Source: a virus
Taxonomy: Duplodnaviria; Caudoviricetes
DNA: 64,000 nucleotides
Virus record (IMG/VR): IMGVR_UViG_3300042274_000720
Coordinates: 2,832 to 66,831 of that record
Direction: 5' to 3' (one strand)
A program made the translations under genes and the position numbers. This document shows, piece after piece, positions 49,635-53,270 of this stretch; position 1 is the first letter of the stretch; every line of letters starts with the position of its first letter. The notes below the pieces were generated by a model that did no database searches, was not told the origin of the DNA, and worked only from the letters and a program-made list of their open reading frames with translations.

Positions 49635-49895
49635 TCATGCGCTGGCTCCCGCCGCCACTTTCGGCGTGCGCGGCGTAGGGGCTGGCCGGCGTGTCGCGGC
49701 GATGCGGGCGAGCGCGTCAAGGCTCACCCCTTCGATACCTCGCGCATCGGCCGCTTTGACGATGTCGAGCCAGCGGTACGCGGGTATGCTGTTGCGATTG
49801 CGCCAAGCCCGCACGGTGACACCGCTCTCGCCGATGTCATCCCCCAGCGCCTCGGCGCTCGGCCAAAGGCCGATGATGTCTGCGTAGGTCTCCAT
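49635..49895 (-). CDS. cro: Cro-like repressor
   Basis: IIGLWPSAEALGDDIG...TVRAWRNRNSIPAYRWLDIV; divergent from cI. Confidence 0.75.
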   Translation of the reverse strand: METYADIIGLWPSAEALGDDIGESGVTVRAWRNRNSIPAYRWLDIVKAADARGIEGVSLDALARIAATRRPAPTPRTPKVAAGASA

Positions 49896-49903
49896 ACCAC
49901 TTA

Positions 49904-49948
49904 CGATACGCATTGCATCGGTATCGCACAAGACCTTTTGTATCAGAC
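49904..49948 (-). promoter_or_regulatory. PR/OR-like operator-promoter
   Basis: 45-nt near-duplicate (inverted) of 52911-52955. Confidence 0.7.
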
Positions 49949-49982
49949 TAAGCCGATGGGTGGCGCTACAATGTGTCTCACC

Positions 49983-50699
49983 ATGACGACAGTAGCCGAA
50001 AGATTGCGGGAGAAGCGTGAGGCTGCGGGCTACGAGTCCGCGTCGGACTTCGCGCGCGCCCATGGCTTCACGGAGCCGACGTACCGGGCCCACGAGAACG
50101 GCACCCGCAATCCCGGCGCGCCGGCGCTCAAGCAGTATGCTGAGGCGCTGGGCGTGGACTGGCGATGGCTTATGCTCGGCGACGACTTCGTTGAGCTGGG
50201 CGATCAGGTCGTCACGATATCGCCGGAGCAGCGTGGGGAGCGCGAGCGCAAGGAGGCGAGCCGCGTGAGCTCGACATCCATCTCGGTCGATGAATTGGAT
50301 GTCAGGGCCAACGGGGGGTACGGCCTAGTGCATGACGCGAAGGAGTCGGAGCCGGTCGTATCGCGCTGGCAGATGCCGGGGGACTTGGTGCGGGGCCAGA
50401 CGACGGCGCCACCGAAAAGCTTGAAGATCATCACCGTATACGGCGACTCGATGACGCCCGACTTCCTGCCGGGCGAGCGCGTCCTTGTGGACCTCGACGA
50501 CAGGCGGCCGTCACCGCCGGGCGTCTTCGTCCTCTGGGACGGTATGGGGCTGGTCATCAAGCGCCTGGAACTGGTGCCGGGCACCGACCCGCCGATGGTT
50601 CGGCTGATCCCGCGCAACGACCAGTATCAGACCTATGAGCAGCCGATCACCGATATGCACATCAACGGCCGCGTGATCGGGAAGTGGCTGTGGACGTGA
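49983..50699 (+). CDS. cI: CI repressor (XRE HTH + S24 peptidase)
   Basis: HTH ...YRAHENG; ANGG cleavage-like site, VYGDSMTP, VIKRL. Confidence 0.9.
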   Translation: MTTVAERLREKREAAGYESASDFARAHGFTEPTYRAHENGTRNPGAPALKQYAEALGVDWRWLMLGDDFVELGDQVVTISPEQRGERERKEASRVSSTSISVDELDVRANGGYGLVHDAKESEPVVSRWQMPGDLVRGQTTAPPKSLKIITVYGDSMTPDFLPGERVLVDLDDRRPSPPGVFVLWDGMGLVIKRLELVPGTDPPMVRLIPRNDQYQTYEQPITDMHINGRVIGKWLWT

Positions 50700-50734
50700 T
50701 CGGCCGCGTCGTATGGATCGGGAGGCGAGTATGA
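50696..50734 (+). pseudogene. Relic 3' end of another S24 repressor
   Basis: Translates VIGRVVWIGRRV*. Confidence 0.65.
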
Positions 50735-51045
50735 GGGGGCGGTTGTCGACCACGGCGCTTGCCGTTGCCGCCGCAATGACCGGGGTGGCGTCCGTCCACG
50801 CCGAGGACCTGGACACGCCAGGCCTGCCGCAACTCGACCAGCTGCTCACCGAGGCGGAACCGGAGCCCCGTGACAACCGGCAGGACGAAGACGCCGAGCG
50901 AATGCGGGTAGAGCGGGCATGGTGCGTTCTTGATCACCTAGACCTCGCATCCGGCGACGGCTTTGCCCTGCTCTGGCGTGCGTGCGACGACTTGGCAGCG
51001 GCGGGGCGTTACAGCAGCCCGAATGCAGCCGGATTTGGCGACTAA
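50731..51045 (+). CDS. Hypothetical exported protein
   Basis: Signal-peptide-like N-terminus; ATGA overlap with the relic stop. Confidence 0.55.
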   Translation: MRGRLSTTALAVAAAMTGVASVHAEDLDTPGLPQLDQLLTEAEPEPRDNRQDEDAERMRVERAWCVLDHLDLASGDGFALLWRACDDLAAAGRYSSPNAAGFGD

Positions 51046-51046
51046 C

Positions 51047-51094
51047 CTGACGGTGATCGGCCGCGTGGTGTGGATCGTGGGGAGGAAGGTGTGA
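51047..51094 (+). pseudogene. Second relic repressor 3' end
   Basis: Translates LTVIGRVVWIVGRKV*. Confidence 0.6.
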
Positions 51095-51143
51095 CACGCA
51101 TTCAAATGGCTGCCCTGGCGCTCCGTCAGGAGTGTTGACAAAT

Positions 51144-51644
51144 ATGGCAACACTGAACGATCTTATGGCCCAAGGAGTTTTGCAGCGCTTTGAGCCCGAC
51201 CTTCCGCCTGAGCGCCTTTGCTACCGCCAGTTCTACATCAGTCAGGCATTCGTTCGATGGGCGGACCAAATCCTTCCAGACCTTATTCCTCGATGGGATA
51301 CGGAACTTGAGCCCATCCAACAGGTGCAAGATCTTCTAGGAAAGTTCATCTGCGGAGAGCGCCTCGCCTGGATTAATGAGTACCACCCTATGCGCCCGGA
51401 AGAACGAGGCGTATGGGAAATGAAAACCGCTGATGTCCGCATCTACGGATGGTTTTACCGACGCGACGTGTTCATCGCGCACCAGGGGTGCGATGCGACT
51501 CGCGCGAAAGGCAACGACGGCTTTTCCAGCCTTCACGGGAGCCTAAGGGCCGAAACGGAACGGTTTCGAAGCACGTTGGACCTAGACCCGCCGTTGTTCA
51601 TTGAAGGAAGCGACCCCGATGACGTCTTTTCGCCTGAAAATTGA
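51144..51644 (+). CDS. RelE/HigB-like toxin candidate
   Basis: GVWEMKTADVRIYGWF resembles the RelE-fold core; low GC. Confidence 0.5.
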   Translation: MATLNDLMAQGVLQRFEPDLPPERLCYRQFYISQAFVRWADQILPDLIPRWDTELEPIQQVQDLLGKFICGERLAWINEYHPMRPEERGVWEMKTADVRIYGWFYRRDVFIAHQGCDATRAKGNDGFSSLHGSLRAETERFRSTLDLDPPLFIEGSDPDDVFSPEN

Positions 51645-52026
51645 CCCCAAGCGCCGGGCAGTAGCTCGTTTCGTGATGACCGTTCGCGATGAGCTTCAGC
51701 GAGCTCTGGCGGAAGAAGCTGCGCGCACGGGCCTGACCAAGTCGGAAGTAGCCAACCGGCTCGGCATCCACCGATCTGCGATCTCGCGCCGCATCAAAGG
51801 AACAGACAACTTGTCGCTCACCTCGGTCGCCGAGATGATGTGGGCTATGGACCGCGACCCCATCTTTGGCAGCAAGCCGAAATACCAAAAAGCTGGGAGC
51901 AATGAACAAGTCGCACGCCTGAGCGATGAGGTCCGGCCCGAGTACAGAAAATTAGGAAACGCCTCCAGCGCATCAGGTAACATCGATCGCGCAGCTTCCC
52001 GAAAAATGTCCTACACTGCGGCCTGA
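51619..52026 (+). CDS. XRE-HTH antitoxin candidate with long C-terminal tail
   Basis: GLTKSEVANRLGIHRSAISRRIKGTDNLSLTSVAEM; overlaps the upstream gene. Confidence 0.65.
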   Translation: MTSFRLKIDPKRRAVARFVMTVRDELQRALAEEAARTGLTKSEVANRLGIHRSAISRRIKGTDNLSLTSVAEMMWAMDRDPIFGSKPKYQKAGSNEQVARLSDEVRPEYRKLGNASSASGNIDRAASRKMSYTAA

Positions 52027-52031
52027 ATGTA

Positions 52032-52478
52032 ATGAATAAATATATGCACGTAGCCTACTGCGACGACGTAAGGCACGAACTGAGCGGCAAGATATCACTC
52101 ATAGGATGCTATGGCTCTGAAATGGTTTTGGAGAGTATTCCTGCCATTGTACCAAAGTTCTGCATGTTCATCTGGATTGCTGTGCCATTCAATGAAGCAC
52201 CGGAGAATGCGACCATACGTGTTTCTCTAGATGGAAAAGAAATAATTAGTAATGAAGTTAATTTTCGAAAGGCGCCTGATCTCGGTGAAGAGGAAACCTC
52301 TAGCCCGACTAAATGGCTGGTCGCAAATCCGATTTATGAGTTCTCGCCTTTTGAAATTCCGCAGCCCGGCGTATTGCGGGTCAGCGCATTTTTTGAAGAG
52401 GAAGAACTAAGAGCGCCGGCACTAACTATCAGTGAAGCCTCTCGTGCGCCCTCGCCGGAAGAGAAAAGCACCCACTAA
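52032..52478 (+). CDS. Beta-rich protein (DUF6941-like)
   Basis: YCDDVRHELSGKISLIGCY motif recalled for this family. Confidence 0.55.
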   Translation: MNKYMHVAYCDDVRHELSGKISLIGCYGSEMVLESIPAIVPKFCMFIWIAVPFNEAPENATIRVSLDGKEIISNEVNFRKAPDLGEEETSSPTKWLVANPIYEFSPFEIPQPGVLRVSAFFEEEELRAPALTISEASRAPSPEEKSTH

Positions 52479-52488
52479 CACTGCTTCC

Positions 52489-52515
52489 GCCCCGCCCACC
52501 GGCGGGGCATTTTTT
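52489..52515 (+). terminator. Rho-independent terminator
   Basis: GCCCCGCC-CACC-GGCGGGGC followed by ATTTTTT. Confidence 0.75.
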
Positions 52516-52575
52516 GACTCGCCGCGAGAACGCATAAGGAACAAAATGGCGAACCATCACCACAGGAGGTACGCC

Positions 52576-52806
52576 ATGAAGCTCACGTCCGGCCTTTTCG
52601 CCGTCATCGCCCAGGGGCGCGTCCGCTGGCTCGTCAGTGCCGAGTCGGCCCCGGAGGCCATCGACATCGCCCGGCCGCTCGCGCACATCGGCGGCATCAC
52701 CGGCACCCTGACCGCCCGCGAAGCTGGGGAAGCGGAGGCAGCGCGGTATCACGAGGCGAGCCGGTCCTGGAGCGGAGAGGTGGCGCTGGCAGCACTGCCC
52801 GTGTAG
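52576..52806 (+). CDS. Small hypothetical protein
   Basis: AGGAGG RBS, own terminator. Confidence 0.6.
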   Translation: MKLTSGLFAVIAQGRVRWLVSAESAPEAIDIARPLAHIGGITGTLTAREAGEAEAARYHEASRSWSGEVALAALPV

Positions 52807-52829
52807 GCGCACCAGCCCCTCTACGCCAA

Positions 52830-52862
52830 GCCCCGCCCGCCCCAGCCGGCGGGGTTCTTTTT
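52830..52862 (+). terminator. Rho-independent terminator
   Basis: GCCCCGCC...GGCGGGGT followed by TCTTTTT. Confidence 0.65.
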
Positions 52863-52910
52863 GTGCAGAAGGCATCTACGCAATACGGCGTGATGCATCG
52901 AAAGCGGTAC

Positions 52911-52955
52911 GTCTGATACAAAAAGTATTGCATTGCACCGATGCATTGCGTATCG
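52911..52955 (+). promoter_or_regulatory. PL/OL-like operator-promoter
   Basis: GTCTGATACAAAA...ACCGATGCATTGCGTATCG mirrors 49904-49948. Confidence 0.7.
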
Positions 52956-52991
52956 TTCACCCATCACCACCGCACAGGGGAGATGGGGAAG

Positions 52992-53270
52992 ATGACCTCC
53001 CAAGCTGAAACCACCGCTGCCGTCACCGACATCCCATACCTCGCGAACAAGGTCGCCGAGTTCGAGGCCGCCCCGCCGCGCTCGTTGCGCCGCGACTTCC
53101 TGTTGTCAGCCCTGATGGGAGACATGCAGGACCTCGGCATCGAGCCGACGCCCGAGTTGCTGGAGGAGGCTGGCATCGCCCGGCGCGACGTCGCCGGCCA
53201 CTGGGACGCCGCTTGTTCCATGCTGCGCAAGCACCGGAACACCACCGGGGAGGGCCGCACCGATGCGTGA
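52992..53270 (+). CDS. Hypothetical early protein
   Basis: First ORF after PL. Confidence 0.55.
   Translation: MTSQAETTAAVTDIPYLANKVAEFEAAPPRSLRRDFLLSALMGDMQDLGIEPTPELLEEAGIARRDVAGHWDAACSMLRKHRNTTGEGRTDA

Follow-up and report, generated by a model that had tools for sequence, protein, structure and literature searches.

The window studied here is a stretch of 64,000 nucleotides (nt), positions 2,832 to 66,831 of the 66.8-kb IMG/VR provirus record IMGVR_UViG_3300042274_000720, and our subject is a cassette of about 1.4 kb within it, made up of three closely packed genes that we refer to as gene 1, gene 2 and gene 3. The cassette lies downstream of a cI-like repressor gene, is closed by its own strong intrinsic terminator, and has a lower GC content (55% for gene 1, 58% for gene 2 and 47% for gene 3) than the window as a whole (about 66%). 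We consider it somewhat more probable than the alternatives taken together that the cassette is a three-component toxin-antitoxin (TA) module, in which gene 3 holds an extension of the antitoxin and conditions neutralisation. The features are as follows, with HTH standing for helix-turn-helix.

49971 to 50699, + strand: cI-like repressor, HTH domain (HTH_31/HTH_3) and S24 peptidase domain (Pfam Peptidase_S24, E 5.4e-10).
51131 to 51154, no strand given: inverted repeat AGTGTTGAC-N6-GGCAACACT, which straddles the start codon of gene 1.
51144 to 51644, + strand: gene 1, predicted toxin of RelE/HigB fold, 166 residues (AlphaFold2 model and fold matches).
51619 to 52026, + strand: gene 2, antitoxin-like protein with an XRE-type HTH, 135 residues (HTH_3, E 2.1e-6).
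52032 to 52478, + strand: gene 3, DUF6941 protein, 148 residues (PF22091, E 2.3e-10; phrog_31406).
52489 to 52516, + strand: intrinsic terminator closing the cassette (stem 52489-52508 with 8 G-C pairs, a 4-nt loop and a T-run).

Gene 1 founds a family that has no Pfam model and is outside all of the curated libraries searched. It has no match in Pfam, NCBIfam, PADLOC or PHROG. Searched for exhaustively with HMMER, the family comprises 424 cluster representatives at a threshold of E<=1e-3 and 235 when this is tightened to E<=1e-10, nearly all of them full-length proteins of about 160 residues. The public gene call for gene 1 in this DNA is wrong, being a 58-residue C-terminal fragment, and it is for this reason that a word-based search for homologues gave no matches, not even to the window's own protein. 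Scans of viral contigs for close relatives, using single proteins, also gave nothing. The alignment of 89 family members (A1) has the motif G-V-W-E-L-K-T-x-D-x-R-x-F-G-W-F, with R28 and R99 invariant. The possibility that gene 1 is a spurious open reading frame (ORF) was considered and rejected, given the large conserved family and the confident fold.

The AlphaFold2 model of gene 1 has a predicted local distance difference test score (pLDDT) of 94.9 and a predicted template modelling score (pTM) of 0.90, and the fold in the model is that of RelE/HigB (RelE/ParE), with about 25 extra residues at the N-terminus and about 15 at the C-terminus. In the VIA structure search, which is independent of Foldseek, the top 22 chains are all of the RelE/ParE fold. 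They include Streptococcus pneumoniae HigB (6af3), with Z 9.8 and a root-mean-square deviation (rmsd) of 3.4 Å over 102 aligned residues, and Mycobacterium tuberculosis HigB1 (7nbu_Y), which is the toxin of the classical toxin-antitoxin-chaperone (TAC) system, with Z 9.2 and an rmsd of 2.8 Å over 105 aligned residues. The best PDB matches found by Foldseek are all YafQ, HigB, HigB2 and RelE toxins, at E values of only about 2e-3 and template modelling (TM) scores by target of 0.6-0.69.

Conservation among the 89 homologues is 99% for K/R94, 100% for R99 and 75% for K122 (87% if R and H are counted), and E92 is conserved too. The spacing of K/R94, R99 and K122, of 5 and 23 residues, resembles that of R68/R73/K92 in S. 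pneumoniae HigB, the catalytic set equivalent to K54/R61/R81 of RelE (PMC9098466). From this spacing and the aligned ranges of the model we take K/R94, R99 and K122 as the candidate catalytic residues of gene 1.

Gene 2 is a protein with an XRE-type HTH domain. The ORF list starts it at TTG 51601, which is possible; ATG 51619 is the likely start because an N-terminus of M-T-S-F/Y is conserved in the relatives, and it gives an overlap of 26 nt with the end of gene 1. There are 57 residues after the HTH domain, and in the first 17 or so of these there is a conserved R-x-I-x-F-x-L, followed after about 8 residues by G-x-N, with the remainder being of low complexity. The R-x-I-x-F-x-L segment reads as a strand-like motif. 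The tail is of 41-73 residues in about 65 loci that have gene 3 adjacent, and the shortest tails, of 27 and 32 residues, are in L078 and L083, the only two clear loci in which gene 3 is absent, and in both the toxin motif is intact. Searches against PADLOC-DB v2 gave only weak HTH-level matches for gene 2, to the candidate systems PDC-M64B/C (best 1.7e-5). In a further locus (L051:4320-5412) the gene 1-gene 2 pair has an antitoxin tail of 92 residues with a different sequence, and an unrelated ORF of 136 residues occupies the place of DUF6941 after gene 2; it may be a different third partner.

Gene 3 is a member of DUF6941 (PF22091), at 41.3 bits against a gathering cut-off of 27, with residues 8-133 aligned to positions 4-124 of the 125 in the profile. 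It also matches phrog_31406, for which no function is annotated. The public call for this gene, of 118 residues from an internal ATG, is wrong, and the reading of 148 residues is preferred because it is supported by conservation in 56 homologues (alignment A4). With the public calls in error, exact-sequence look-ups miss both gene 1 and gene 3. There is a nearly invariant N-terminal motif, [FY]-C-D-D-[IV]-R-x-E-x-x-G-K. The AlphaFold2 model (pLDDT 91.5) is an all-beta sandwich, and its PDB matches are a flat list of generic Ig-like domains with Z<=8.2, with UNC119/PDE6-delta at a TM score of about 0.4, while the matches in BFVD are uncharacterised phage proteins. No SecB chain is among the listed Foldseek and VIA matches of the model, and the suggestion that gene 3 is a SecB-like protein was rejected as the fold differs. 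A search for fused forms of DUF6941 among longer proteins found none, which is weak evidence.

An earlier note on this DNA, made from the letters and their ORFs, had described a RelE-like gene, an overlapping XRE-HTH gene with a low-complexity tail of about 50 residues, and a beta-rich DUF6941-like gene. The first description agrees with the predicted fold of gene 1, for which there is no family match by sequence, and the third with both the Pfam score and the all-beta model. The second agrees with the overlap, the HTH domain and the tail, which is of low complexity after the conserved motif at its start.

Well over a hundred loci have all three genes together. Starting from gene 1, homologues of gene 2 and gene 3 are directly downstream in 11 of 11 IMG/VR loci. 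For species-representative genomes there are 80 loci, mostly from Hyphomicrobiales (Bradyrhizobium, Rhodopseudomonas, Methylobacterium, Rhizobium and Brucella), with a full-length gene 2 in 79 of them and gene 3 in 74; of the six without gene 3, two are truncated at the end of a contig. Taking the viral and genomic loci together, 90 of 91 have gene 2 after gene 1. In 80 gene 1 loci from metagenomes gene 3 is present in 46; 21 of the loci end too early, and 9 belong to a Bradyrhizobium-type clade in which gene 3 is on the opposite strand at a distance of about 1.5 kb.

Gene order and orientation vary in L017, L019 and L020, and the three genes are still neighbours there. In these loci, from Rhodopseudomonas (L017:6660-8420), an uncultured alphaproteobacterial metagenome-assembled genome with the Bradyrhizobium-type layout (L019:4902-6194) and Methylobacterium (L020:4693-6930), the cassette adjoins a gene for a large secreted protein with curlin-like repeats, around which inversions have rearranged genes 1-3. 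Where the layout is of the Bradyrhizobium type, gene 3 is directly upstream of the gene with curlin-like repeats, on the other strand.

The association is also found when the search is started from gene 3. A degenerate DNA pattern for the gene 3 motif picked out 56 IMG/VR contigs, and in 47 of the 54 viral loci that could be analysed there is a toxin-family gene two places upstream, which is of the gene 1 family in 24 cases and of the type found in Pseudomonas phage MD8 in 23. The gene between toxin and gene 3 ends at the gene 3 start or within a few bases of it. Using hhalign we could detect no relation of the gene 1 family to the MD8-type toxin family or to the MD8 protein itself. The first gene of the cassette in Synechococcus phage MinM1 is a distant member of the gene 1 family (hhalign probability 71%). 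DUF6941 is found in cultured phages of both Pseudomonas and Synechococcus.

In the case of bacterial genomes, a gene 3 homologue is present in 9 of 401 evenly sampled Pseudomonadota genomes (about 2%). Profile A4 detected gene 3, whereas the PF22091 profile missed it even in genomes that hold it. The contexts in the sampled genomes are the gene 1 type, the MD8 type, a HicAB pair and an MqsA-like pair. The HicAB case is L101, where DUF6941 follows genes for HicA_toxin and HicB (Pfam). In L102 it follows a zinc-finger HTH antitoxin that matches the MqsA family (TIGR03830) at E 4.3e-5, below the curated cut-off, and the 126-residue protein in the toxin position has no family match, so that its identity as MqsR is not confirmed.

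These findings invite comparison with the TAC systems. In TAC families of the SecB type, a SecB-like chaperone accompanies HigBA, HicAB or MqsRA pairs (PMC5105189). The chaperone binds the disordered C-terminal ChAD of the antitoxin, and HigBA that lacks the ChAD no longer needs the chaperone; E. coli HigBAC uses its chaperone as phage sensor as well, the major tail protein of lambda competing it away (bioRxiv 10.1101/2024.02.24.581848). The cassette resembles M. tuberculosis HigB1-HigA1-SecB(TA) (Rv1955-1957), E. coli HigBAC and CmdTAC in having, in one operon, a toxin, an extended antitoxin and a small third protein in that order, and the best structural matches of its toxin include HigB1 itself. 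DUF6941 serves HigBA-, HicAB- and MqsRA-like pairs, as the SecB-like chaperones do, the match of the MqsA-like antitoxin being weak. Both kinds of system are prophage-borne, and in both the extension of the antitoxin is shorter where the third gene is lost, the short tails of L078 and L083 being a parallel to the ChAD deletion that frees HigBA from its chaperone (bioRxiv 10.1101/2024.02.24.581848). The differences are that the third protein of the cassette is an Ig-like beta-sandwich and not a SecB homologue, that in one type of DUF6941 cassette the extension is N-terminal, and that chaperone activity, addiction and a phage trigger are proposals in the case of the cassette. We have not filed it as a TAC member because the defining SecB homologue is absent.

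The TAC-like reading is well supported by comparison. The earlier note had proposed the TAC analogy, with a protein other than SecB as the third component, and had expected the three genes to be found together elsewhere. The co-occurrence is as described above, and the analogy gains from HigA-like, HicB and MqsA-like antitoxins all preceding DUF6941, from the tails being shortest where gene 3 is absent, and from the third protein being unrelated to SecB; it has to be qualified in that a tailed antitoxin is not universal, as the MD8 type has its extension at the N-terminus. The two computable outcomes that would have told against the cassette as proposed, a gene 1 lacking the RelE fold and genes that do not occur together elsewhere, were both looked for, and in each case it was the opposite that was found.

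For the working of the module we infer toxicity of gene 1, its neutralisation, binding of the tail by gene 3, a trigger and a role in phage defence, in the following way. The cassette would be a type II TA module that the prophage carries as a moron after its repressor gene, and in lysogens the two are probably transcribed together. Gene 1 would be an mRNA endonuclease of HigB/RelE fold, probably ribosome-dependent, and gene 2 a DNA-binding antitoxin that neutralises gene 1 and probably acts as repressor of the operon by way of the palindrome spanning the start of gene 1. Gene 3 would be the obligatory Ig-like partner that binds the disordered extension of gene 2 and keeps the antitoxin functional in the manner of a SecB-like chaperone. 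The antitoxin would fail once gene 3 is diverted or titrated by an incoming phage, or once expression ceases, and the freed toxin would then shut down translation, so that the infection is aborted and there is rex-like exclusion. Abortive infection or exclusion is the likely role because of the location of the cassette.

A more specific proposal can be made for the family, which we put forward tentatively and would rate at rather less than an even chance. DUF6941 may be a second class of TA addiction partner, unrelated to SecB, in which the Ig-like sandwich holds the short beta-strand motif of the antitoxin extension and a phage structural protein competes with it. The repressor-linked cassettes would then be modular rex-like abortive-infection systems, with toxin, antitoxin and sensor exchanged independently.

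There are several points that weigh against a three-component module of this kind. At the level of sequence nothing connects gene 1 with a RelE/ParE family or a solved structure, and profiles A1 and A6, searched against the sequences of solved structures, found no toxin at a meaningful E value; the assignment of its catalytic residues depends on the model and on residue spacing. The argument from tail length depends on two loci, L078 and L083. MD8-type cassettes carry the antitoxin extension N-terminally and not as a C-terminal tail, and in the Bradyrhizobium-type clade, where gene 3 is about 1.5 kb off and on the other strand, the tail has just 40 residues. Gene 3 is a generic beta-sandwich with no chaperone relatives among its structural matches, and its polar motif (C-D-D-x-R-x-E-x-x-G-K) could point instead to a ligand or catalytic site. 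The models of PADLOC-DB v2 gave no match for gene 1 or gene 3, and a role for the cassette in defence depends on its position alone.

Of the other explanations the best is that gene 3 is itself the neutraliser, or the folded body of a split antitoxin, with gene 2 being mainly a regulator and adaptor as in omega-epsilon-zeta or PaaR2-PaaA2-ParE2. The near-obligate co-occurrence, the gene 2 stop lying beside or overlapping the start of gene 3, and the nearly invariant polar surface motif of gene 3 would all fit. However the HicB and HigA-like proteins that partner DUF6941 are from families that neutralise toxins directly (PMC5105189), two loci keep an intact gene 1 and gene 2 with no gene 3, and some genomes place gene 3 on the other strand and apart from gene 1, and we regard this explanation as unlikely, at perhaps one chance in a handful.

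Somewhat less probable again is that the cassette serves above all for addiction or stabilisation, retaining the prophage in its lineage or tuning its induction, with gene 3 doing no more than adjust the turnover of the antitoxin, and with no function in defence against other phages. Type II TA modules are known to stabilise mobile elements, the cassette is linked to a repressor gene whose expression marks lysogeny, and there are many chromosomal copies with no repressor found alongside. On the other hand lambdoid phages carry exclusion genes in this place behind cI, defence against phages has been demonstrated for SecB-type TAC systems, which follow the same logic, and the swapping of two toxin families and several antitoxin families around gene 3 fits a diversifying, defence-like evolution. 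That gene 3 is an unrelated moron, for example for superinfection exclusion or a surface-related function, beside an ordinary HigBA-like pair is very improbable, for while its Ig-like fold is generic, it has no functional annotation and in some genomes it can have a transcript of its own, at least five different TA pairs precede it with the antitoxin stop beside or overlapping its start, inversions have left it no more than about 2 kb from genes 1-2, and it is very rarely missing from gene 1-2 pairs.

Returning to the three-component module and its setting, the position of the cassette is downstream of the S24/HTH repressor gene and upstream of a + strand operon with genes for a YqaJ exonuclease and a RecT recombinase, and it is therefore in a slot like that of rexAB in lambda, as had been proposed from the sequence. 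The three packed low-GC genes with their own terminator were also said to lie between cI and PL. All are present, and two more ORFs have to be added, one of 110 residues (50713-51045) that separates cI from the cassette, and one of 76 residues, with its own terminator, ahead of the early promoter region. No + strand terminator was found between cI and 52489, and a scan of 49800-53100 for sigma-70 promoters gave no site; the repressor transcript probably runs on into the cassette. None of the sequencing runs listed as holding this DNA is an RNA dataset. The link to a repressor is found elsewhere: of 39 viral loci, 18 have an S24 repressor as the immediate upstream neighbour of the cassette, and so do phages MD8 and MinM1 and the loci L015, L081 and L104.

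The inverted repeat at 51131-51154 is kept in 38 diverse loci, in which 76% of cells are paired, a share that falls to 25-59% if the partners are displaced by sliding. The level of covariation is modest, being equalled by 6-9 of 500 shuffles. The repeat is probably the operator for the HTH antitoxin, and an RNA hairpin across the gene 1 start codon is a possible alternative. In many relatives the palindrome has TTGAC, followed 16 nt later by TAGAAT, TAGAGT or TAGATT within codons 5-7 of gene 1, where there is a rare TTA Leu codon; examples are L007:1822-1872 and the first gene 1 codons of L013, L042 and L076. These words could form an internal promoter for a transcript that has no toxin start. 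In the window itself the -10-like word in the gene 1 start region is a poor one.

There are traces of how the cassette may have arrived, the first being the following feature.

51047 to 51094, + strand: relic of the 3' end of another repressor gene, translated as LTVIGRVVWIVGRKV*.

This relic ends 49 nt before gene 1 and is similar to the C-termini of S24 repressors that precede homologous cassettes, those repressors being 70-77 nt upstream of the cassette in L015 and L081 and about 1.6 kb upstream in L006. It is probable from this resemblance that the cassette came in along with the terminal part of a repressor gene from another phage, and the relic is likely to be the scar of an acquisition by recombination at a repressor gene. 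On the other side, two metagenome runs on bioreactors gave contigs X10 and X12, which agree with the window from 52488 (the terminator stem) onwards and have unrelated sequence before it, a hint of a recombination boundary at the right edge of the cassette; each is a single low-depth contig. The contigs from four runs on wastewater or bioreactors represent this same phage at low depth, and none of them is a variant lacking the cassette.

The flanking regions have features of their own. Directly after the cI stop there is a relic of a repressor 3' end at 50696-50734 (VIGRVVWIGRRV*), the TGA of which overlaps the ATG of the 110-codon ORF. That ORF has a signal-peptide-like N-terminus and no family matches, and the region 50696-51045 is probably a second moron that was acquired separately. 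The 76-codon ORF (52576-52866), which also has no family match, comes after the cassette terminator and before the early promoter region, and its own terminator is at 52836-52853 plus a T-run. The segment 52895-52960, ahead of the early operon, is AT-richer and has the repeated words TGCATTGC and GCATTGCG, which may be repressor operators at a PL-like promoter.

With regard to known systems other than TAC, the cassette shares with HigBA pairs the placing of the toxin first, the overlapping genes, the RelE/HigB fold of the toxin model, the HTH antitoxin and the palindrome at the start of the operon. It differs in its obligatory third gene and in gene 1, which at 166 residues has extra termini and no sequence match to the HigB, Gp49, RelE or ParE models. 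The homologous cassette of MD8 was annotated as HigB-like and HigA-like from a comparison of hidden Markov models, with the third gene not discussed (PMC8508860). In omega-epsilon-zeta and PaaR2-PaaA2-ParE2 there are also three small co-transcribed genes with one DNA-binding protein among the products, but there the third protein is a transcriptional regulator, whereas here the HTH protein is in the antitoxin place and the extra protein is a beta-sandwich that does not bind DNA. The rexA and rexB genes of lambda are exclusion genes co-transcribed with cI, and form a two-protein system of a sensor and a membrane channel. The cassette has the same slot and orientation, after the repressor gene and before the early-left recombination operon, and is likewise a terminator-closed, moron-like cargo of lower GC content. 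There is no relation in sequence or fold, and Rex is not a nuclease toxin with an antitoxin.

We found no mention of DUF6941 in the papers searched, and recent papers on TAC, RelE/ParE, NetFlax and domain-centric discovery do not describe this cassette, which looks like an undescribed counterpart of the chaperone-dependent TA systems with which bacteria counter phages. TAC systems have so far been defined by their SecB homologue, and here an unrelated Ig-like protein of a widespread family is in the same place. If our reading is right, the design with a third partner has evolved at least twice, DUF6941 gains a function, and a family of HigB-like toxins with 424 representatives and no Pfam model is added to those known. 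The repeated placing of such cassettes right after prophage repressor genes would then point to a common mechanism of exclusion encoded by lysogens.

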